Shown here in pieces: positions 100 to 15,964 of a DNA stretch of 16,300 nt (position 1 is the stretch's first letter; each line of letters begins with the position of its first letter). The notes beneath the pieces were generated by a model, which made no database searches, was not told the DNA's origin, and was given only the letters and a program-made list of their open reading frames with translations. Where the stretch lies: UHGV virus genome UHGV-1567883. One strand, given 5' to 3'. The DNA comes from a virus. A program made the translations under genes and the position numbers.

Positions 100-1152
100 T
101 TATTTCCCCACCAGCTCGTTTATCTCTTTCACTGTCTGGTTAAACCGCTCTGACTCAAGCTCAACACCTAAGGCCCGACGCCCCAGCGCCATTGCTGCTT
201 TTATTGTGGAACCGGATCCCATAAAAAAATCAGCAACCAGATCACCAGGTCGACTACTGGCATTGATTATTTGCCTGAGCATATCCGCCGGTTTCTCACA
301 CGGATGTTTACCCGGGTAGAACTGAACGGGTTTATGCATCCAGACATCGGTATAAGGCACGGAGACTGATACGGAGAAATAGCGCCGGAGAGATTTAAAC
401 TCATCCAGCAATTCAGAATATTTGCGATTCAGTGAATCATAAGATGCCACCAGCTGGTGGTGTGGTTGTTCCAGTTGTTGTTCCTGAAACTTCTCTGCCG
501 CTATACGGGAAAACAGTGCCTGTAACTTCCGATAGTCAGCCTCATTCGGCAACTGCCACTGACTGGCACCAAACCAGTGGGAAACCATATTTTTCTTACC
601 TGTGGCTTCGGCAATTTGTTTTGCCGTTATACCCAGTTCGGCACGAGCATCCCTGAAATACGATATCAGCGGTGCCATTATGTGCTGTTTGAGTTCCCTT
701 TCTTTTGCCGCATAGCCGTCACTTTTGCCGCGATATGGCCCCTGGTAATGTTCAGCAAACAGAACGCGCTCTGTGGCAGGAAAATATGCGCGCAGACTTT
801 CTTTATTACACCCATTCCAACGTCCGGACGGCTTCGCCCAGATGATATGGTTAAGCACGTTGAAACGTTCACGCATCATGATCTCAATATCAGATGCCAG
901 GCGATGCCCACAGAACAGGTAAAGGCTTCCGGCAGGTTTTAACACCCGCCAGAACTGGGCCAGACAGTGGTCCAGCCACTTAAGGTAATCTTCGTCCCCT
1001 TTCCACTGATTGTCCCAACCGTTGGGTTTCACCTTGAAGTACGGCGGATCGGTAACAATCAGGTCAATGGAATCATCAGGCAGGGACTGAATAAAATGCA
1101 GGCAATCAGCGTTGATTAAATCAACACTGTTTATTTTTACAGTATTTTTCAT
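100..1152 (-). CDS. DNA methyltransferase, beta-class N6-adenine/N4-cytosine type (DPPY motif)
   Basis: 350 aa. SIDLIVTDPPY catalytic motif near the N-terminus and a C-terminal FMGSGST SAM-binding motif, the motif order of PF01555-type MTases (compare E. coli YhdJ). Central insertion of about 100 aa. Confidence 0.8.
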   Translation of the reverse strand: MKNTVKINSVDLINADCLHFIQSLPDDSIDLIVTDPPYFKVKPNGWDNQWKGDEDYLKWLDHCLAQFWRVLKPAGSLYLFCGHRLASDIEIMMRERFNVLNHIIWAKPSGRWNGCNKESLRAYFPATERVLFAEHYQGPYRGKSDGYAAKERELKQHIMAPLISYFRDARAELGITAKQIAEATGKKNMVSHWFGASQWQLPNEADYRKLQALFSRIAAEKFQEQQLEQPHHQLVASYDSLNRKYSELLDEFKSLRRYFSVSVSVPYTDVWMHKPVQFYPGKHPCEKPADMLRQIINASSRPGDLVADFFMGSGSTIKAAMALGRRALGVELESERFNQTVKEINELVGK

Positions 1153-4897: not shown

Positions 4898-5220
4898 ACT
4901 TTCAGGCCCCTCTCATGTAACCAGTGGGCTGCACGCAGCCTGGCGTTCTCCTCACCGGCAAGCAGTGCGCGGATGATACCGACCGCTTCGCTGTCGTCGT
5001 CCTTCACTGCGGTATGAAGCGTTATCCCCCGGGCCACGCCACGCTTTATCGTGATGACGCCTTTTTTCTCCAGTGCGCGAAGATGCTCCACCGCTGCATT
5101 CACCGAACGGTATCCCAGCATGGTTGCCACCTCCTGATTGGTTGGCGGAAAGCCACGCTCTTGCTGGTAAGAAATCAGCATATCCAGCACCTGCTGCTGG
5201 CATTGAGTTAACGTCGTCAT
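4894..5220 (-). CDS. LexA N-terminal DNA-binding-domain homologue lacking the S24 peptidase domain
   Basis: 108 aa; LTQCQQQVLDMLISYQQERGFPPTNQEVATMLGYRSVNAAVEHLRALEKKGVITIKRGVARGITL aligns motif-for-motif with the LexA winged-helix domain. No Ser/Lys catalytic domain. Translationally coupled (ATGA) to dam upstream and rusA downstream. Confidence 0.7.
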   Translation of the reverse strand: MTTLTQCQQQVLDMLISYQQERGFPPTNQEVATMLGYRSVNAAVEHLRALEKKGVITIKRGVARGITLHTAVKDDDSEAVGIIRALLAGEENARLRAAHWLHERGLKV

Positions 5221-5870
5221 GCCGCCATCTCCCTGACAAGTTTTTCTGCCTGCTGGCGAACCTGCGCCAGAAACGCCTCACCACATGCCTCAAGTTCATC
5301 GCGCCCGATGTAGCTGATTGCCGGTCCCTTCCAGGTCTTGTCGAAAACAGCAATAGCACCAGCGAAGAAAGCGCCTGTCGGCACCTGCTTCTCATCCTTC
5401 GGGATAAACCAGGCAGGCAGTTCAAAACCAATACGCCCGCGAATAAAAGCAATATGGTCCGCATCTTCCGGCCACCACACTTCGCTGGTGGCAGCTTTGA
5501 TCAGGAAAACATAGCGCCCGCCCTTATCACGCATGGCACTGGCATGTTTCATGATGTAACGCATGCCGGTGATGTATTGCCCCTCATGCTGACTGGCGCG
5601 GCTGTATGGGGGATTACCAAAGGCAGCACCTTTAAGCTCCGCAAGACGTTCTGACCAGTCATGCGCCAGCGCGTTGTCTTCCGCCGTGTAATACGCGGCA
5701 CATTTGGCGTTATCACCGTCAGTGAACAGATCCAGAACAAACGGACCAAACAAGGTGTTAATTCCCCAGAAAATGTTGTCCGGCGTGCGCCACTGATCGC
5801 CCACTTCCTTCAGTTCATGGGCTGGTTTGTTCCGCAGTTCTACCAGCGCCTGGCAATATTTATTACTCAT
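5217..5870 (-). CDS. Phage-type DNA N6-adenine methyltransferase (small Dam-like family)
   Basis: 217 aa; FGNPPY catalytic motif; size and layout of the phage N-6-adenine methyltransferase family (compare CPS-53 yfdM). Confidence 0.8.
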   Translation of the reverse strand: MSNKYCQALVELRNKPAHELKEVGDQWRTPDNIFWGINTLFGPFVLDLFTDGDNAKCAAYYTAEDNALAHDWSERLAELKGAAFGNPPYSRASQHEGQYITGMRYIMKHASAMRDKGGRYVFLIKAATSEVWWPEDADHIAFIRGRIGFELPAWFIPKDEKQVPTGAFFAGAIAVFDKTWKGPAISYIGRDELEACGEAFLAQVRQQAEKLVREMAA

Positions 5871-7126: not shown

Positions 7127-7305
7127 AGGACTGTCTCCTTCTGCCGGTTGAAATCACCCACAGCCCACTCTGCAAAGCTGTGGGTTACAATTTCCCTGTC
7201 ACCTGGTACATTCACTGCATAGCAATACTCCACCTTCGCTTTTCCACCCGGTACAGGAAGCGCAATCAGTTGCGAGCGACGGTAGTGTGTTGTTAAACTG
7301 TTCAT
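6967..7305 (-). CDS. Hypothetical protein; conflicts with the overlapping 70-aa ORF
   Basis: 112 aa; ATG overlaps the upstream stop (ATGA) and its stop sits just before the O-gene SD, which is good operon geometry, but 160 nt overlap the 6914..7126 ORF. Confidence 0.4.
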
Positions 7306-7886
7306 GCGTTAGTTTCTCCACAACCAGAAGCAATCGACGCCACGACGCCCGGAGCTGCACACTCGCGGGCGTTACTCTTTTCCGGCGCACAAAAAACACG
7401 AAATAACAGTGTTAAATGCTCCTGCCACTTCGCCATTACTTGGTAGCTGTTCTCTTCGATTTGCTCACGCTCAGCCTGGTCAATAACTCCATCAGCAGTT
7501 GCCTTGCGTAAGTACTGGGAATGCTTGCCAATCCATTCTATTGACTCCATCAGCCGCTGATTAATGTCACCATTGTCAATGTCATCAATGACCACCAGCG
7601 GCACAAACACCCCATTACTACGACGGGCTATTGCATCTGTTACATGCCTGGTACCACTGGCATCCTGTAAAACCATGGCCCACTCAAGTGGAAAAATTTG
7701 ATCCCCACCGCTACGCAGTCTGTTATGCAATTGATCTTTTGCTGGGGTGATATCATCAGATTTATACAAACCAAGAATTTCTGCTGCTTCCTCATAGCCA
7801 TGAGGTAAATCAGCAATCGTTCTTCGTATTGCTGCCACCAGCCATGCTGGTTGTTTATCAACTTTCCATTCAGGTTCTTTACCCAC
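7302..7886 (-). CDS. Regulatory protein at the cII position (CII/CP76-like or YdaT-like; family uncertain)
   Basis: 194 aa; GTG start with GAGGAA 8 nt upstream; immediately downstream of the cro-like gene. Confidence 0.45.
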
Positions 7887-7913
7887 GGTTAATTCCTCAT
7901 TTCTGTGGTGTTT

Positions 7914-8111
7914 TTATGCCGCAGCACTGTTAGTCTTTTGATATAAAGACACGTCAACTTTCAGTTTCCCGTTAGTAATTTTTTCTAACTGGTACGCTCG
8001 GCCTTCAGGAATAATCTCAGGCCACTCTGAAACAGACGGATGCTTAATACCTAGGGCTTCGGCGGTTTTACAAACTCCGCCGAAATAATTAATCACGTCG
8101 GATTTCCGCAT
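7914..8111 (-). CDS. Cro-like repressor (YdaS/Cro family)
   Basis: 65 aa, divergent from the cI-like gene; GGGAGA SD upstream of the ATG; first gene of the minus-strand operon from the PR-like promoter. Confidence 0.7.
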   Translation of the reverse strand: MRKSDVINYFGGVCKTAEALGIKHPSVSEWPEIIPEGRAYQLEKITNGKLKVDVSLYQKTNSAAA

Positions 8112-8142
8112 TTCTGTCTCCCGTTAAATTACGTCAAGCAGG

Positions 8143-8208
8143 AATGTAGGATATCCAACATGCCAATGTCAAGAATCCTACATTGGCATGTGGTAGGATT
8201 GCCTACAT
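8143..8208. promoter_or_regulatory. OR-like region: three 18-bp operator repeats plus PR-like promoter
   Basis: ATGTAGGATATCCAACAT 8144-8161; degenerate site 8166-8183 with perfect right half ATCCTACAT; TGGTAGGATTGCCTACAT 8191-8208. Minus-strand TTGACA (8172..8167), 18-nt spacer, TACATT (8148..8143) reading toward cro. Confidence 0.6.
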
Positions 8209-8860
8209 GATGAACATGAGTGATCGTATTCGCCAAAGGCGAAAAGAACTGAACCTGACACAACAAGCACTGGCTGATTTGACTGGTGTGAACCGTGTCA
8301 CGGTTACTGGATGGGAAAAGGACGACTACCAACCAAATGGAGCCAACCTTCAAGCCCTAGCCAACGCACTTAAATGCGATCCTCTGTGGCTTGTTAGCGG
8401 AAAAGGCTCGCCTGAACCAAAGATAAATCTAAAACCTGAAATATTCGCAGTTAAAAAAGTCCCCCTCATCTCGTGGGTTCAGGCGGGTTCATGGACAATG
8501 ACGGAGCCTGGTGTCAGGAAAGAAGATGCTGAAGAGTGGGTTTATACTACCGCCCTTGTATCAGAAATGGCATTTGCACTACGGGTCCGTGGTGATTCAA
8601 TGACCAATCCCCTCGGCTCACCATCGATACCAGAAGGTTCTATCGTTATCGTAGAGCCAGATATTATTGATACAGAGTGTATTAACGGAAAAATCGTTGT
8701 TGCCCATATCAATGGTGGGCAAGAAGCGACACTCAAAAAATTTGTTGAGGACTGGCCGAACAGGTATCTCGTCCCACTAAATCCTAACTATAAAACTATT
8801 GAATGCGGTGAGAACTGCAGAATAGTTGGTCTTGTCAAACAAGTAATAATGGATTTTTGA
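8207..8860 (+). CDS. CI-like prophage repressor (HTH_XRE N-terminus, S24 LexA-like autopeptidase C-terminus)
   Basis: HTH LNLTQQALADLTGVNRVTVTGWE; Ala-Gly cleavage site in VQAGSW; catalytic Ser in GDSM and Lys in ATLKK. The track start at 8183 is probably too long; ATGs at 8207/8210/8216 follow AGGA. Confidence 0.85.
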   Translation: MMNMSDRIRQRRKELNLTQQALADLTGVNRVTVTGWEKDDYQPNGANLQALANALKCDPLWLVSGKGSPEPKINLKPEIFAVKKVPLISWVQAGSWTMTEPGVRKEDAEEWVYTTALVSEMAFALRVRGDSMTNPLGSPSIPEGSIVIVEPDIIDTECINGKIVVAHINGGQEATLKKFVEDWPNRYLVPLNPNYKTIECGENCRIVGLVKQVIMDF

Positions 8861-8884
8861 CACATCTTCCTTACTATCGCAAAA

Positions 8885-8907
8885 CCGGGGTATCCCCGGT
8901 TTTTTTA
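8885..8907 (+). terminator. Intrinsic terminator after the cI-like gene
   Basis: CCGGGG-tat-CCCCGG followed by an 8-T run. Confidence 0.75.
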
Positions 8908-8922
8908 TGAGCCTATCTTTTT

Positions 8923-8976
8923 ATGTAGGATAACCAACATAAACTCTTGACACCTACATGTTGGATATCCTACATT
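8923..8976. promoter_or_regulatory. OL-like region: two operator repeats plus PL-like promoter
   Basis: ATGTAGGATAACCAACAT 8923-8940 and ATGTTGGATATCCTACAT 8958-8975 (exact reverse complement of the OR site at 8144-8161). Plus-strand TTGACA 8947-8952, 18-nt spacer, TACATT 8971-8976. Confidence 0.6.
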
Positions 8977-9134
8977 TGTTTTTAGAGTTGTGGTGAATGC
9001 GCAGGCTGATGCGCGAAAGACATTGCAGCTATTGCGGAAAAGAGCTGTTCGGCGGGGCAATTAAACGCCCGTGAGAGTCTGAAATAACCGCAAGCCGGAG
9101 ATCAGCACCGGTCACCACAACAGCCACTGCTTTG

Positions 9135-9269
9135 GCGGTACCAGTTTGTACACTTGCTTCCGGCTGGTACCGCTCTTTTTACAAAACAGAGAAGAGCATC
9201 ACCGGACGACGGGCTCATAACCCAATCCATCCGGGCGGCTGCCACCGCAGGTGTTCTTCTCTGTTTTGT
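9135..9269 (+). promoter_or_regulatory. Structured leader of the early-left operon: terminator-like hairpin plus a long-range 15-bp inverted repeat
   Basis: GCGGTACCAG (9135-9144) / CTGGTACCGC (9164-9173) followed by a T-run 9176-9180; ACAAAACAGAGAAGA (9181-9195) pairs with TCTTCTCTGTTTTGT (9255-9269). Confidence 0.35.
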
Positions 9270-9317
9270 GGAGAAACTAACCGACCTTGCAGGGTCGATA
9301 TGATGAGGAGCAGCAAA

Positions 9318-9680
9318 ATGGCTAGCGAACGCAGTACTGATGTGCAGGCATTTATCGGGGAGCTGGACGGCGGCGTATTTGAAACCAAAATCGGCGCAGT
9401 TCTCAGTGAAGTCGCTTCCGGTGTGATGAACACGAAAACCAAAGGTAAGGTCTCACTCAATCTGGAAATCGAACCGTTTGATGAGAACCGAGTGAAAATC
9501 AAACACAAACTCTCATATGTTCGCCCGACTAACCGCGGGAAAATTTCCGAAGAAGACACCACCGAAACGCCGATGTATGTCAATCGCGGTGGTCGCCTGA
9601 CTATTCTGCAGGAAGACCAGGGACAATTACTGACTCTTGCCGGTGAACCTGACGGAAAACTCCGCGCAGCAGGTCGTTAA
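9318..9680 (+). CDS. YfdP-like hypothetical phage protein
   Basis: The 120-aa version starts at the ATG at 9318 preceded by GAGGAG; the longer track ORF from 9132 lacks an SD. Gene order and sizes match CPS-53 yfdP/Q/R/S (recollection). Confidence 0.55.
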   Translation: MASERSTDVQAFIGELDGGVFETKIGAVLSEVASGVMNTKTKGKVSLNLEIEPFDENRVKIKHKLSYVRPTNRGKISEEDTTETPMYVNRGGRLTILQEDQGQLLTLAGEPDGKLRAAGR

Positions 9681-11858: not shown

Positions 11859-12065
11859 ATGCTGAACCTCGATTGCGTTCCAATCTCAACTTATTGCAAA
11901 GAAACTGGCGAAACTCCTGAAGCAATAAACAAACGTGTACAGCGCGGTGTTTGGCGTGAAGGTGTTCAGGTTTTAAAGGTTGAAGGCGTTAAGGAGAGGT
12001 GGATTGATCTTAGTGAGGTTGCAAAATGGGCCAGACAAAACTGCTCAAACTACCGCGCGGCGTAA
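11859..12065 (+). CDS. xis: Excisionase (Xis-like winged helix)
   Basis: 68 aa from the ATG at 11859 (GTGGAGA SD); directly upstream of and overlapping int by 40 nt, as in lambda xis-int. Confidence 0.6.
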   Translation: MLNLDCVPISTYCKETGETPEAINKRVQRGVWREGVQVLKVEGVKERWIDLSEVAKWARQNCSNYRAA

Positions 12066-13192
12066 CAATCAGGAAACACCGCCAGGGCGAAACGATCAAT
12101 ATAACTTTCACCTACAAAGGAGTTAAATGTCGTGAGCCTCTTTCCAATCTGGAAGTAACACCAAAGAACATTAAATACGCCGAGCGCACACTCGGCGAAA
12201 TTCATAATAAGATCGAAAGGGGAACATTCATTTATGCGGAATATTTTCCCCGTTCTGCTCGTTTGAAAATTTTTGGTAATGCTGCTGCAGGCAAAACGGT
12301 AAAAATGTACCTGGACGAATACCTTGAAATCTGCGAAACGAGAAAACTTTCACCCTCTACGATTGGTGGTTATAAAAAATGCCGTAGTGCGTTAGCCTCA
12401 CTCCACATTTGCCCTGCAAGTGAATTAACACCAGCAATCCTGAAAGCGTGGATTCAAAGCCAGAAAACGACCTTAAAAACAATTCGCAACCAGTTATCTT
12501 TCCTGCGGTCAGCACTTGATGAAGCCGTAACCGATGGGGTACTTCAAATTAACCCCGTATCGTTGGTAACTGCTTCGCGCTACCAAAGTGATAAGTCAGA
12601 AGCAGAAAGCAGCTACGTGGTTGATCCGCTATCACCAGCAGAAGTTGATGCATTACTAACAGCAGCCGGAAACAAACAATGGGAGAATCTGTTCCGGTTC
12701 GCTATACATACAGGCCTGCGTAGTTCTGAATTATGTGCCCTTCGATGGCGTGATATCGACTTTGTTGGAAAAACTGCCCATGTCCAGAGCGCAAGTGTTG
12801 TCGGTGTTATCAAAGGAACAAAGACAAAAGCCGGTACTCGTAAAGTTGAACTGACAGAAGATGCAATGTTGGCGCTGATAAATCAGAAGCCATTTACATT
12901 CATGAAGGATGCTACTGTCTTTGAAGATCCAAAGACCAATAAGCCCTGGGCAAGTGCTGATGCAATCAGGAAAAAAGCATGGGTGCCAACATTGCGAAAA
13001 GCAGGTATTCGTTACAGAAATCCATATCAAACCAGGCATACATTCGCCACCCGCCATATCAGCCGGGGAGCAAACCTGTTTTGGCTTGCAGCTCAAATGG
13101 GGCATAAAGGGCCGGAGATGCTTTTCAGGCACTATGGCTCATATCTGAAGGAATATGATGGACAAACAAGCTTGAAGAAGATAACAATATAA
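12026..13192 (+). CDS. int: Tyrosine integrase (lambda Int family with N-terminal arm-binding domain)
   Basis: 388 aa; catalytic R in TGLRSSEL, H/R in QTRHTFATRH, Tyr in LFRHYGSY; GAGG SD 7 nt upstream. Confidence 0.9.
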   Translation: MGQTKLLKLPRGVTIRKHRQGETINITFTYKGVKCREPLSNLEVTPKNIKYAERTLGEIHNKIERGTFIYAEYFPRSARLKIFGNAAAGKTVKMYLDEYLEICETRKLSPSTIGGYKKCRSALASLHICPASELTPAILKAWIQSQKTTLKTIRNQLSFLRSALDEAVTDGVLQINPVSLVTASRYQSDKSEAESSYVVDPLSPAEVDALLTAAGNKQWENLFRFAIHTGLRSSELCALRWRDIDFVGKTAHVQSASVVGVIKGTKTKAGTRKVELTEDAMLALINQKPFTFMKDATVFEDPKTNKPWASADAIRKKAWVPTLRKAGIRYRNPYQTRHTFATRHISRGANLFWLAAQMGHKGPEMLFRHYGSYLKEYDGQTSLKKITI

Positions 13193-13250
13193 TCCAAGCA
13201 TGAAACTATTGGCCACAATTTGTGGCCATTTTACGGAGCAAGATAGAAAC

Positions 13251-14984
13251 ATGGCAAATCAAATTACCAAACTAAAAAATATAAATGTTGTGAAGTTTCG
13301 CGGACTGAAAAATATAAACATCGAGTTTGGTTCTCGCCTAACTGTTATTTGTGGTAAAAATGGCACATCTAAATCCACAATTCTTGGCATTATCGCCCAA
13401 ATATTTAGCTTTACAAAGGACTTTACCAAAAACCCTGAGACTGATTTAACACAATATAAAACATTAACAAATGGCAGCTTCAAGTCAGCTTTCAGCGAAC
13501 ATTTTAGGCTTTCAGAACAATTTGATGTTCCTGGTTCAATGGACGTCAAAATTAGTGTCTATGATGGTGCATCGAACAAACATCTTGAAAAACTAACATT
13601 AGGTTTATACAGCTACAGTGACAGAGATAAATCTAGGCCTGTAGTCAGGGGAAATGATTCAATACCGGAAAAAAACCAAAGTAGAAACGTTACTCATCCT
13701 GTTATTTTTTTAAGCTTAGCACGACTTCTTCCTATTACATTAAGGACTGATTACTCAACACGGGATGTTCAGTACATCAATGAAAATTCTGATGAAATCA
13801 GAATGATGAGTAACCAACTCTTACTAAAAAACAATGGAAGCTCAGTAACAGCAACAAAAGGTACTATCGATTCAATGGTTGTCCATGGTGACAATTATGA
13901 TCACCAATCAGTATCTGTTGGTGAAGATAATGTTGGACAATTAATCCAGGCAATTTTTTCATTTAAAAGATTGAAGGAAACTTATTCTGATTATCATGGC
14001 GGAATATTGTTAATTGATGAAGCCGATGCAGGTCTTTTCCCTGCGGCACAGTTAGAGCTAATTAATATTCTAACTAAAGCAGCAAAACAATACGATCTGC
14101 AAATAATCATGACCTCGCACTCTCCATTAATAATAGAGGATATCTATAATCGTTCAAAACAAGATAGTGATAGCTTTAAAACAATATATCTTACAGACAC
14201 ATATGGAGATATTAAAACAAAGAATAATCTTTCATGGACAGATATCCACGCTGATTTACATGTTGAAACTGTAAAAATTAATGATGACATTTGTCTTCCA
14301 AAGGCAAATGTATATTTTGAAGACAAAGAAGGTTTCGACTTTTTCAAACAATTGATAACAGATCGAAAAATAAATAAAATATTAAATCCATTAGGAAATA
14401 TAAATATTAGCTGCTCTGCCATGCTTGACTTAATGGCAAGAAAAATACCAGAATTTACAGCTAAAAGCTTGATCGTCTTAGACGGTGATGTTGTTCACGA
14501 CAACAGTGCTAATGCAAAAAAAGCCAAAAAAGAAAAAAACTTATGTTTGCTTCCAAGCACCTTACCTCCAGACCAAATGATTTTTGAGTTTTTATATAAT
14601 TTACCACCTGATGATGCATATTGGGAAAATAAAAATAAATTTACAAAAGCTGTTTTTATGAAAACAGCTAAAGACATAATTGCAACGCTAAAGATTGGTA
14701 ACGCTCCGATTGATTTAAAAATCCTTATAGATAATTATAAAAAAGTTAACAAAAACCATGGAGGGAGAGTTAGAAAACTGTTTAAAGATTTTGCACATAC
14801 GACTCAATTTCAGGCCCAAGTCAAAGGAAGAGTTAAAGATAACCCATATCGATATTGGGTCGAGAAAAATCCTGTTCAATCGGATAGCTTCAAGAATGAA
14901 CTAATAAAGAGTCTTAAAGTTATTATGATAAGTGGACATGGTGTCGATTCTGCTACCATCTCATCATATCTGTCAGATAACTAA
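13251..14984 (+). CDS. OLD-family-like nuclease candidate: N-terminal ABC-type ATPase plus C-terminal TOPRIM-like domain
   Basis: Walker A CGKNGTSKST (nt 13350-13379), Walker B/D-loop ILLIDEAD (14014-14028), H-loop TSHSP (14112-14126), TOPRIM-like EGFD (14328-14339) and LIVLDGD (DxD at 14481-14489). The gene is visibly AT-rich. Alternative start at 13200. Confidence 0.7.
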   Translation: MANQITKLKNINVVKFRGLKNINIEFGSRLTVICGKNGTSKSTILGIIAQIFSFTKDFTKNPETDLTQYKTLTNGSFKSAFSEHFRLSEQFDVPGSMDVKISVYDGASNKHLEKLTLGLYSYSDRDKSRPVVRGNDSIPEKNQSRNVTHPVIFLSLARLLPITLRTDYSTRDVQYINENSDEIRMMSNQLLLKNNGSSVTATKGTIDSMVVHGDNYDHQSVSVGEDNVGQLIQAIFSFKRLKETYSDYHGGILLIDEADAGLFPAAQLELINILTKAAKQYDLQIIMTSHSPLIIEDIYNRSKQDSDSFKTIYLTDTYGDIKTKNNLSWTDIHADLHVETVKINDDICLPKANVYFEDKEGFDFFKQLITDRKINKILNPLGNINISCSAMLDLMARKIPEFTAKSLIVLDGDVVHDNSANAKKAKKEKNLCLLPSTLPPDQMIFEFLYNLPPDDAYWENKNKFTKAVFMKTAKDIIATLKIGNAPIDLKILIDNYKKVNKNHGGRVRKLFKDFAHTTQFQAQVKGRVKDNPYRYWVEKNPVQSDSFKNELIKSLKVIMISGHGVDSATISSYLSDN

Positions 14985-14996
14985 TTGATTAAAAAA

Positions 14997-15030
14997 GGGT
15001 TTTATGTGATGGCCATAAAGCCCTTTTTTT
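14997..15030 (+). terminator. Strong intrinsic terminator between the OLD-like gene and the Dam-family MTase gene
   Basis: 10-bp stem GGGTTTTATG / CATAAAGCCC (one G-U pair), 7-nt loop, then a 7-T run. Confidence 0.75.
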
Positions 15031-15064
15031 GATATACTTTAGATCTGACATTTAGAGGTATCAT
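15029..15064 (+). promoter_or_regulatory. Candidate extended -10 promoter and SD of the Dam-family MTase gene, overlapping a GATC
   Basis: TGaTATACT extended -10 (15030-15038); AGATCT with GATC at 15042-15045 near the predicted start; SD AGAGG 15054-15058; ATG 15065. Confidence 0.35.
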
Positions 15065-15964
15065 ATGCGTTTTAACACCCCACTTCGCTATCCTGGCGGT
15101 AAAGGCAAGCTTGCAAATTTCATGCTTCGGATTATTGAAGAAAATAATCTTTCGCCTATACATTATGCCGAACCATATGCTGGGGGTGCTGGTTTAGCAT
15201 TGAAACTGTTACATCTAAATGCAGCTGAAAAAATCATCCTTAATGATATTAATATTTCTGTTTATGCTTTTTGGCACAGTGTATTAAATCATGCAGATCA
15301 ATTATGTTCTTTAATTGAAAGAACAGAAGTTACAATGGATGAATGGTTTAGGCAGAAAGATATAATTAATAATCCTAAAGACCATGATCTTTTAACAATT
15401 GGTTTCTCAACCTTTTTTCTCAATAGAACAAATCGTTCTGGAATATTAAAAGGTGGAGTAATTGGCGGTAAAAATCAAGAAGGGAAATGGAAGCTTGACG
15501 CTCGCTATAATAAGAGTGATTTGATTTCTCGAATCCATAAAATATCAGAAAATCGTCACAGAATAGATTTATATAACATGGATGCAATTGATTTCATTAA
15601 AAAAATAGTTACTCAATTGCCACAAAACTCATTAACATATTTGGATCCACCTTATTACATAAAAGGTAAAGGTTTATATATCAACCATTATGATCATGAT
15701 GATCATGTTAGGGTTGCAAAAGTCGTACAGAATAATATTAAAACACCTTGGATTGTTTCTTACGATAACACTCCTGAGATCCAAGCTATGTATAAGACAT
15801 CATCATTAGTATATGGAATAAACTACAGTGCTCAAGATCGGTACAAAGGATCTGAGGTAATGTTCTTCAGTGAACGATTGAAAATCTTTAAAACAGATGA
15901 TCCAACTAAGGTAAAAGCGCCTGTATTTAAAAGAGGATGTGTTGACGACCACATCCAGACATAA
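15065..15964 (+). CDS. Dam-family (D12 class) DNA N6-adenine methyltransferase
   Basis: 299 aa; aligns by motif to E. coli Dam: PGGK near the N-terminus, SAM motif EPYAGGAG, NRTNRSG region, catalytic DPPY. AT-rich. Confidence 0.85.
   Translation: MRFNTPLRYPGGKGKLANFMLRIIEENNLSPIHYAEPYAGGAGLALKLLHLNAAEKIILNDINISVYAFWHSVLNHADQLCSLIERTEVTMDEWFRQKDIINNPKDHDLLTIGFSTFFLNRTNRSGILKGGVIGGKNQEGKWKLDARYNKSDLISRIHKISENRHRIDLYNMDAIDFIKKIVTQLPQNSLTYLDPPYYIKGKGLYINHYDHDDHVRVAKVVQNNIKTPWIVSYDNTPEIQAMYKTSSLVYGINYSAQDRYKGSEVMFFSERLKIFKTDDPTKVKAPVFKRGCVDDHIQT

Follow-up and report, generated by a model that had tools for sequence, protein, structure and literature searches.

Genes and sites at the locus

The window analysed here is a 16,300-nt stretch of the virus genome UHGV-1567883, and the region of interest, at 8143–8976, consists of a repressor gene, cI, with promoters and 18-bp pseudo-palindromic sites on both sides of it (Table 1). 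The N-terminal domain of the repressor is homologous to that of P22 c2 (3.9e-14) and its C-terminal domain to that of lambda cI (7e-25), with VQAG, GDSM and KK aligning with the cleavage site and catalytic residues of lambda cI; in the proposed model this lambda-cI-like domain is self-cleaving and oligomerising. On the other strand lie a cro gene, whose product is homologous to P22 Cro and whose ATG follows the Shine–Dalgarno sequence GGGAGA by 7 nt, and a gene for a CII-like activator. An intrinsic terminator follows cI, and relatives also have a hairpin and T-run at this place, with different stem sequences.

Table 1 Positions of the genes, promoters and proposed operator sites in the window
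Feature	Position	Strand	Sequence	Mismatches to palindrome	Matrix score (bits)	Details
CII-like activator gene (194 aa)	7302–7886	−				second gene of PR operon; Phage_CP76 1.3e-6; PHROG 101 3.4e-62
cro (65 aa)	7914–8111	−				Pfam P22_Cro 7.6e-22; PDB 1rzs P22 Cro 7.3e-12
PR	8143–8172	−				−35 TTGACA 8172–8167, 18-nt spacer, −10 TACATT 8148–8143; inferred +1 near 8136
OR1	8144–8161		ATGTAGGATATCCAACAT	1	28.9	over PR spacer/−10
12-bp perfect inverted repeat	8158–8191		ACATGCCAATGT / ACATTGGCATGT			centred on OR2; lineage-specific
OR2 (weak)	8166–8183		ATGTCAAGAATCCTACAT	5	10.5	left half = PR −35; right half = perfect half-site
OR3	8191–8208		TGGTAGGATTGCCTACAT	4	16.6	2-nt overlap with cI start codon
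Candidate PRM	8191–8207	+				extended −10 TGgTAGGAT (8191–8199); predicted +1 A8207 = A of cI ATG
cI repressor gene (217 aa)	8207–8860	+				Pfam HTH_3 1.1e-15, Peptidase_S24 3.7e-25
Intrinsic terminator after cI	8881–8909	+				10-bp stem, 3-nt loop, T7; fold −15.2 kcal/mol
OL2	8923–8940		ATGTAGGATAACCAACAT	2	26.3	ends 6 nt upstream of PL −35
PL	8947–8976	+				TTGACA 8947–8952, 18-nt spacer, TACATT 8971–8976; predicted +1 near 8984
OL1	8958–8975		ATGTTGGATATCCTACAT	1	29.1	exact reverse complement of OR1; over PL spacer/−10
PL leader	8984–9317	+				~335 nt, without N-like gene; then yfdP ATG at 9318

Proposed operator sites and promoters

The original prediction started from an 18-mer at 8144–8161 that reappears as its exact reverse complement at 8958–8975, each copy sitting within the spacer/−10 of a TTGACA-N18-TACATT promoter. 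Our promoter scan bears this out: the pattern is found on the + strand at 8947–8976 and on the − strand at 8172–8143, both with 10 of 12 hexamer positions matched, and these are the two best results between 7850 and 9400. The proposed operators overlie the only two strong sigma-70-like promoters of the region. The similarity of the two mirror-image arms spans 32 nt (8143–8174 versus 8945–8976, 88% complementary). The layout of sites was also as described, with three at OR starting at 8144, 8166 and 8191 (spacings of 22 and 25 bp) and two at OL starting at 8923 and 8958 (35 bp). The promoters had been said to fire leftward into cro and rightward into the early-left operon; the directions hold, but the latter operon has no N-type gene.

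A motif search with the idealised palindrome ATGTAGGATATCCTACAT, allowing up to three mismatches, gave hits at 8144, 8923 and 8958 only in the 16.3 kb, where none is expected by chance (200 shuffles). With a scoring matrix trained solely on the OR1, OL1 and OL2 sites of relatives, the five proposed sites are the top five scores in the window and again the top five across the 50 kb of phage Lys8385Vzw, and the scan detected no further operator clusters in either. Maxima from shuffled sequence had a median of 8.2 bits and a 95th percentile of 14.1 bits; OR1, OL1 and OL2 score 26–29 bits and OR3 16.6 bits, and OR2, at 10.5 bits, lies inside the range of the shuffle maxima. A half-site in the PL spacer, CACCTACAT (8951–8959), was considered as a third OL site and rejected because it varies even among the E. 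coli copies.

The promoter of cI itself is less distinct. The cI mRNA may be leaderless and start from a PRM with the extended −10 TGgTAGGAT, for which no recognisable −35 was found; each of the 53 distinct OR regions from the survey described below has the T preceding GGTAGGAT. In lambda PRM gives a leaderless cI mRNA. Two other candidates were dropped: TTGGCA-N17-CATGAT (8183–8211) relies on a variable spacer and would start past the first ATGs, and TACATT at 8179–8184, as a −10 for cI, is not kept in relatives. The conserved TGgTAGGAT is thus preferred. Whether the repressor would stimulate its own synthesis is uncertain, because OR2 would overlie the −35 region of this putative PRM rather than lie upstream of the −35 as it does in lambda.

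Conservation among relatives

Relatives from Enterobacter, Pantoea and Erwinia and those of mEp390 type, whose cI proteins are 60–90% identical to that of the window, share as invariant columns the half-sites and the promoter hexamers, and differ in the spacers. The relatives from Enterobacter, Pantoea and Erwinia have the OR1 of the window unchanged, the PR hexamers are kept, and so are the PL hexamers TTGAC(A/C) and TACATT; among E. coli copies the substitutions again fall in the spacers. A survey of IMG/VR yielded 53 distinct OR regions, all with the three-site layout, and 62 distinct OL regions; in 60 of the latter there are exactly two sites, at a constant spacing of 35 bp and with the position of OL2 unchanged. 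Throughout both sets the half-sites and the promoter hexamers are kept and the spacers between sites are hypervariable. For the OR columns we used the profile of the mEp390-type regions together with visual inspection, the entropy of the window-type regions being blurred by length variants of 1 nt. The search pattern for OR consisted of OR3 plus ATG, so conservation of OR3 in the IMG/VR set is a matter of ascertainment; OR3 is identical in the relatives found via their proteins. The 45 distinct repressors are 59–100% identical, and the recognition helix GVNRVT(V/I)TGWE is present in 44 of them. Conservation of this kind does not by itself separate binding by cI from binding by Cro.

The middle OR site, OR2, has the backing of its position and conservation, but its sequence is a weak half-site match and its score lends no support. 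In the 53 OR regions its position and most of its sequence are kept, with the right half degenerating in some lineages. It is conceivable, though unlikely, that OR is effectively bipartite, OR1 and OR3 being the only true sites and OR2 simply the −35 of PR beside a fortuitous or vestigial half-site. Such an arrangement would account for a score below the 95th percentile of the shuffle maxima, for the fact that all the mismatches (5 of 18) fall in the left half, and for a right half that in the lineages of Pantoea and Erwinia reads CTTACCT. Against it, the window and Enterobacter both have a perfect right half, CCTACAT, as do most of the 33 OR regions of mEp390 type, and it is kept between spacers that are saturated with substitutions. 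The position moreover matches the OR2 spacing of P22, and in lambda, 434 and P22 weak OR2 sites are as a rule filled through cooperativity (PMC3317979).

OR2 is also the centre of an inverted repeat, which had been predicted as a separate element of 10 bp at 8159–8190. The repeat is real and in fact longer, comprising 12 perfect bp (8158–8169 and 8180–8191), but the notion of a separate conserved element does not survive, the bases specific to it being the most variable positions of the region. Its non-operator bases (8162–8165 and 8184–8190) are the polymorphic positions among E. coli copies. Since the repeat varies within E. coli and is lacking in other genera, it is probably not functional. 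A function of its own, either as a site for another regulator (Cro, the CII-like protein or a host factor) or as a new cI promoter, the TTGGCA-N17-CATGAT mentioned above, seems to us very unlikely. A perfect repeat does need eight matching non-operator bases, for which we calculate a chance of ~1.5e-5, the promoter scores 9/12 in the scan and the commonest E. coli variant retains 11 of the 12 bp; yet the E. coli copies differ exactly at the repeat-specific bases without compensating changes, most variants have lost TTGGCA, and the repeat is missing from the Enterobacter, Pantoea, Erwinia and mEp390-type regions. A repeat of this kind, with no function attached, could arise by template switching at the palindromic OR2 (“quasi-palindrome correction”).

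That the 32-bp mirror arms, 88% complementary with one gene between them, bound a mobile or invertible cI cassette as its terminal inverted repeats or recombination sites is hardly credible and was rejected: there is no transposase or invertase between or beside them, in relatives their similarity shrinks to operator and promoter hexamers with the 5-nt spacers differing, cI keeps its orientation towards cro in all loci examined, and the pattern is the signature of two promoters under one protein, as with OR1/PR and OL1/PL of lambda.

The probable immunity switch

Gene content, the placement of the sites and the phylogenetic footprint across dozens of diverged relatives support the reading of the two modules as PR and PL with their operators, the footprint being the strongest support. 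The region shows what is expected of a lambdoid cI/Cro locus, namely a helix–turn–helix repressor with a self-cleaving S24 (LexA-like) domain, a divergent small gene of Cro type with a CII-type activator behind it, several pseudo-palindromic sites between cI and cro over PR and the putative cI promoter (OR2 being weak), and, past the 3′ end of the repressor gene, a second operator over PL. In lambda, P22 and 21 the PL operon begins with a nut site and a gene for an N-type antiterminator; these were not found here. The geometry is that of P22-type operators: 18-bp sites, 22 and 25 bp apart at OR and 35 bp apart at OL, with the cI ATG overlapping OR3 by 2 nt. Judged from sequence, 8143–8976 very probably serves a lambdoid E. 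coli prophage as its immunity switch between lysis and lysogeny and follows the plan of P22. As such it is an ordinary immunity region of the standard P22 type, and it leaves the current understanding of phage switches unchanged, with no new principle.

On this plan, dimeric cI would bind 18-bp pseudo-palindromes with the consensus ATGTAGGAT|ATCCTACAT. In the lysogen, repressor at OR1, on the spacer/−10 of PR, and perhaps at OR2, on its −35, would silence PR and with it cro, the cII-like gene and the replication genes; repressor at OL1, on the spacer/−10 of PL, and perhaps at OL2, just upstream of the −35, would silence PL from yfdP onward to int. OR3, the third of the sites between the divergent cro and cI, would cover the proposed PRM and the cI start codon, and surplus repressor there would switch off cI itself. 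DNA damage would lead to RecA-stimulated self-cleavage of cI at its Ala-Gly site and so to induction. A P22-type Cro would be expected at the same sites with the preference reversed. We infer the order of affinity among the sites, and likewise a cooperativity between OL1 and OL2, whose 35-bp spacing exceeds the 22–25 bp of OR by about one helical turn.

Comparison with known switches

The closest plan is that of P22. In the P22-like locus L003 the sites are also of 18 bp, OL1 lies on the spacer/−10 of PL, and OL2, at a distance of 35 bp, directly precedes the −35, all as in the window; the OR spacings are 23 and 25 bp rather than 22 and 25 bp, and the c2 ATG abuts OR3 instead of overlapping it. 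PR of the window is a mirror copy of PL with its −10 at the cro-proximal edge of OR1, whereas the P22-like PR hexamers appear to lie one operator further in. P22 has a gene-24/N-type antiterminator after PL, which the window does not. The overall identity between P22 c2 and the window cI is only ~44%. Neither the half-site ATTTAAG nor the c2 recognition helix, which would mark the immunity specificity of P22 or phage 21, is present; the half-site is ATGTAGG, and NRVTVTG replaces the SNVAISQ of the c2 helix GVSNVAISQWE. These differences imply a different specificity, one apparently undescribed to date. Our literature search turned up no binding or transcription-start data for these operators, the operator strings matched unrelated primers only, and the papers that name the carrier phages do not describe the operators.

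Lambda and the window share divergent cI and cro genes, a tripartite OR, an operator over PL downstream of cI, near-identical OR1 and OL1 sites in near-identical promoters, and a homologous C-terminal repressor domain in which the motifs for self-cleavage (Ala-Gly, Ser and Lys) are found. The sites of lambda are, however, 17 bp long and unrelated in sequence, its OL has three of them rather than two, and its rexAB, N and nutL were not seen in the window. The immunity region of the Stx phage 933W likewise has three sites at OR and two at OL, but the cI genes of 933W-like Stx phages are only ~34–36% identical to that of the window and the operator sequence is unrelated. For 933W, 10 half-sites have been described, with OL1 and OL2 named, and the repressor has been reported to be non-cooperative (PMC3317979). 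Phage mEp390, whose region is uncharacterised, has the five-site architecture, OR3, the 35-bp OL spacing and the recognition helix in common with the window, although its cI is only 60% identical; its OR1 is TAGTAGGATATCTTACAT, OR1 and OR2 are 23 bp apart, the PR hexamers are TTGACC and TACTAT, and the leader and first gene behind PL are other than those of the window.

The leader of the early-left operon

Between PL and yfdP there is no ORF, and no family match, for an N-type antiterminator, and yfdP, the first gene of the operon, has no Pfam match. An N-type gene is not universal among lambdoid phages, HK022 being without one. The leader instead contains a structured block (8987–9122), a terminator-like hairpin (9135–9173) followed by TCTTTTT, and a long, widely conserved hairpin (9181–9269), and folds with z = −5.2. 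Where yfdP homologues stand behind cI genes of other types, the 3′ half of the leader is kept upstream of them and shows 6 compensatory pairs. The version found in E. coli has a mosaic joint with other phages at about +1 of the leader.

HK022 and the window are alike in that a PL operon lacking an N-type gene opens with structured RNA. In HK022 early transcription does without N by means of the put RNA, with which the PL transcript opens (PMC9378689). An RNA of put type, with ~70 nt and two stem-loops just downstream of PL, is not present in the window; comparison of the leader with the PL and PR regions of HK022 (blastn-short, putL and putR from NC_002166) gave chance matches of 8–9 nt only, so there is no sequence similarity, and the structures differ in size. 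Rfam gave nothing at gathering thresholds in the whole window and noise only, at E < 5, in 8900–9400.

A wider proposal would be that the uncharacterised specificity (ATGTAGG, NRVTVTG) is common to the ~60%-identical repressors of the window and mEp390 types and that, across a large group of prophages of enterobacteria, the N-less ~335-nt leader is a new RNA element that controls the early-left operon in cis, by antitermination or attenuation. Taken together, we consider this improbable. If the specificity were shared in this way, phages that seem heteroimmune by cI sequence would actually cross-repress.

Distribution

Among complete E. coli genomes, 141 of 5,426 carry the module; well over 100 viral contigs of IMG/VR have it too, as do Stx1- and Stx2c-converting phages. 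It would therefore control the induction of prophages that matter clinically. Its natural variants, which number in the dozens, separate constrained bases (half-sites, hexamers and the exact 35-bp OL spacing) from free ones, and the set could be used to study the co-evolution of operator and repressor in a P22-type system. The Stx1 phage Lys8385Vzw has been described as being without CI, Cro and CII, and N is also stated to be absent (PMC7946995). It carries the immunity region of the window at 99.3% identity, which points to a conventional SOS-inducible switch in this phage, and the published description needs correcting in this respect.

Predicted operator sites and promoters flanking cI

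The 18-mer ATGTAGGATATCCAACAT at OR1 and its exact reverse complement at OL1 were both located as first described, on mirror arms that extend to 32 nt (8143–8174 against 8945–8976) with 88% complementarity. An idealised palindrome, ATGTAGGATATCCTACAT, allowed up to three mismatches, occurs in the 16.3-kb window only at the starts of OR1, OL2 and OL1, and 200 shuffles gave an expectation of no match by chance. The OR sites start 22 and 25 bp apart, the spacing that had been claimed, and the two OL sites 35 bp apart. The promoter TTGACA-N18-TACATT was found twice, once on each strand; both copies (10/12) are the top matches within 7850–9400. The right half of OR2, ATCCTACAT, is perfect and its left half is the −35 of PR. 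An extra half-site, CACCTACAT, lies at 8951–8959 within the PL spacer, sharing 2 bp with OL1; it varies between E. coli copies, is missing in other lineages and is probably fortuitous as an operator.

A symmetrised weight matrix built from the OR1, OL1 and OL2 sites of relatives only placed the five proposed sites as the top five 18-mers of the window. The next best scored 8.6 bits, and the shuffle maxima had a median of 8.2 and a 95th percentile of 14.1. The same five sites rank top in the 50 kb of Stx1 phage Lys8385Vzw, where all else scores 6.6 bits or less, so that the prophage-wide motif search suggested with the original prediction puts them first in both sequences.

Features of the immunity region and its surroundings
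Feature	Position	Strand	Matrix score (bits)	Mismatches to palindrome	Remarks
N6_N4 methyltransferase	100–1152				
Dam-like methyltransferase	5217–5870				in PR operon
CII-like gene	7302–7886	−			
cro	7914–8111	−			65 aa, P22-type Cro; Pfam 7.6e-22, PDB 1rzs 7.3e-12
PR	8172–8143	−			
OR1	8144–8161		28.9	1	
Inverted repeat	8158–8169, 8180–8191				12 perfect bp
OR2	from 8166		10.5	5	
OR3	from 8191		16.6	4	
Candidate PRM extended −10	8191–8199				TGgTAGGAT
cI	8207–8860	+			217 aa; HTH_3 1.1e-15, Peptidase_S24 3.7e-25
Terminator after cI	8881–8909				10-bp stem
OL2	from 8923		26.3	2	
PL	8947–8976	+			
OL1	8958–8975		29.1	1	
PL leader, first block	8987–9122				closed by 10-bp helix
Candidate leader ORF	8997–9074				25 codons, MRRLMRERHCSYCGKELFGGAIKRP
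PL leader, terminator-like hairpin	9135–9173				then TCTTTTT
PL leader, long hairpin	9181–9269				inner motif CGACGGGCTCATWACCCAATCCAYCCGG almost invariant
Integrase	12026–13192				
D12-class methyltransferase	15065–15964				beyond integrase

Conservation in relatives

The region 7900–9400 is 100% identical to prophages of several E. coli chromosomes, and Stx2c-converting phages and Lys8385Vzw match the window at 99% identity. Searches with cI as query, by tblastn and by a scan of genomes, brought up relatives with 60–90% identity: phage mEp390, Enterobacter soli, Pantoea brenneri, Erwinia tracheiphila and a mEp390-like E. coli prophage. Each of them carries three sites in the cro–cI interval and a further two past the cI terminator. 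Aligned with MAFFT, these regions are invariant at the operator half-sites, at TTGACA and at TACATT, and the 4–8-nt stretches between them differ in each lineage. Among five E. coli copies (95–98% identical) nearly all substitutions fall in the spacers 8162–8165 and 8184–8190 and in the PL spacer. The Erwinia tracheiphila cI (1501–2150 of its locus) is interrupted, running for 167 aa and then out of frame, with the five sites and both promoters intact despite this; it probably belongs to a decaying prophage.

A survey of IMG/VR with OR3 plus the ATG as query pattern matched at least 120 stretches, and the analysis rests on the 80 loci listed among them; conservation of OR3 in this set is by construction, and the other four sites (OR1, OR2, OL1 and OL2) do not depend on the pattern. 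Among the matches listed there are 53 distinct OR regions of two subtypes, that of the window (ATGTAGGATATCCAACAT-N4-ATGTCAAGAATCCTACAT) and that of mEp390 (TAGTAGGATATCTTACAT-N5-GGTCAAGGATTCCTACAT). Of the 62 distinct OL regions listed, 60 have exactly two sites (≥12 bits), whose starts are invariably 35 bp apart, in the order OL2, 6 nt, TTGAC(A/C), 5 nt, OL1 running into TACATT; the exceptions are a rearranged locus and the Erwinia copy with the frameshift. Among the distinct repressors listed, 45 in number, identity to the window cI is 59–100% and all but one keep GVNRVT(V/I)TGWE, for which P22 c2 has GVSNVAISQWE.

The inverted repeat around OR2

The inverted repeat described as a separate 10-bp element is real and longer, at 12 perfect bp, and is centred exactly on OR2. 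It is too good for pure chance. At the ends of each arm, four bases belong to the adjoining operators, as their ACAT and ATGT termini. The bases specific to the repeat are the two spacers, which vary more between E. coli copies than any other positions. There the left spacer reads GCCA, GTCA, GACA, ATCA or ACAA and the right TGGC, GGAC, GGGC or GAGC, and the changes do not compensate one another; the commonest variant among the IMG/VR matches listed, GCCA with GGGC, is an 11/12 repeat. The repeat is absent from the other genera compared. It would be explained, with no need for a function, by templated "quasi-palindrome correction" around OR2, itself palindromic. On these grounds we regard the repeat as lineage-specific and probably non-functional, rather than as an element separate from the operators.

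Proposed regulation and comparison with known systems

The original observation is thus confirmed and its interpretation supported: we hold it very probable that this is an immunity region on the P22 plan. Judged from sequence, its architecture is that of P22. The P22-like locus examined has 18-bp OR sites with start-to-start distances of 23 and 25 bp, and its OR3 directly adjoins the ATG of c2; OL2 and OL1, whose starts are 35 bp apart, flank the PL −35, and OL1 covers the spacer and −10. The window differs in its half-site (ATGTAGG against ATTTAAG in P22) and recognition helices, and in PR, which mirrors PL instead of keeping the P22 register. Residues 1–66 of cI match the N-terminal domain of P22 c2 (3.9e-14) and the remainder matches lambda cI (7e-25); VQAG, GDSM and KK align with the lambda cleavage site and the catalytic Ser and Lys. 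These conserved motifs suggest induction through RecA-stimulated self-cleavage. The logic is shared with lambda, with differences in site length, sequence and number of OL sites.

On the analogy of P22, repressor dimers bound at OR1 and OL1 would block the −10 and spacer at both early promoters, PR and PL. OR2, a half-site over the PR −35, is rather likely to be a genuine site, probably filled cooperatively. The 35 bp from OL2 to OL1 is about one helical turn beyond the 22–25 bp of OR and would offer a comparable face for pairwise cooperativity, for which at OL we consider the odds even. OR3 would cover the cI start. The sole conserved candidate for PRM is the extended −10, whose TG has its T in 53 of 53 OR variants listed, though outside the query pattern. 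Transcription is predicted to begin at A8207, the first base of the cI start codon, and the mRNA would then be leaderless. The lambda PRM transcript of cI is also leaderless. Since the candidate has no good −35 and OR2 would cover that region, we give a leaderless PRM an even chance. The TAGGA within the candidate −10, 8 nt ahead of the ATG, may double as a Shine–Dalgarno sequence on transcripts reading through from farther upstream.

Stx phage 933W is a precedent for three OR and two OL sites (PMC3317979), with a distant repressor: 933W-like Stx-phage cI proteins are ~34–36% identical to the window cI. We found no published description of this operator or specificity in the literature searched, and the region appears to be a new specificity within a thoroughly known kind of system. 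According to the Lys8385Vzw genome paper, that phage lacks CI, Cro, CII, CIII and N (PMC7946995). Contrary to this, its sequence MT225100.1 carries the present immunity region at 32572–33633 (99.3% identity), with CI-, Cro- and CII-like genes labelled "LexA family repressor", "hypothetical" and "DNA-binding protein".

The PL leader and flanking genes

Unlike in P22, PL is not followed by gene 24/N, and the leader (8984–9317) has no N-like gene. N-less, highly structured and widely conserved, this leader adjoins the region first noted and is the most interesting loose end. It is predicted to fold strongly (338 nt, −135 kcal/mol, z = −5.2); it matches no Rfam family and has no similarity to HK022 put. 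Behind different cI types, its 3′ part is kept 5′ of yfdP/sb37 homologues in SfV, ST64B, phiNP, Kp4866-6, Eeyore and mEp460, and RNAalifold shows compensatory changes there at six pairs. Homology to phages of other immunity (mEp460, Stx2a_1447, PhiR63_1 and others) starts at 8984–8987, a few bases from the predicted PL start, which places a mosaic joint between immunity and early-left modules at about +1. The first block has a counterpart of 98.5% identity near plp in the P1-like phages RCS47 and JL22, and in IME207, a phage whose recorded host is Klebsiella pneumoniae; the first ~37 nt of the block also occur in several Klebsiella phages. The block contains a candidate 25-codon ORF and a predicted hairpin, GCGCA-GGCTGA-TGCGC, that loosely recalls P22 boxB.

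Replication-type genes, Dam, RusA, KilA-N and DUF968 follow on the PR side, and yfdP, yfdQ and yfdR-like genes on the PL side, up to the integrase. Three DNA methyltransferase genes lie within 16 kb. Directly past the integrase (13200–15964 region) are a 594-aa AAA ATPase, which matches PtuA, GajA and AriA-type models, and the D12-class adenine methyltransferase, a PADLOC PD-Lambda-5_B match (2e-124); together they probably make up a PD-lambda-5-like defence pair, sited at the end of the prophage or at its attachment site.
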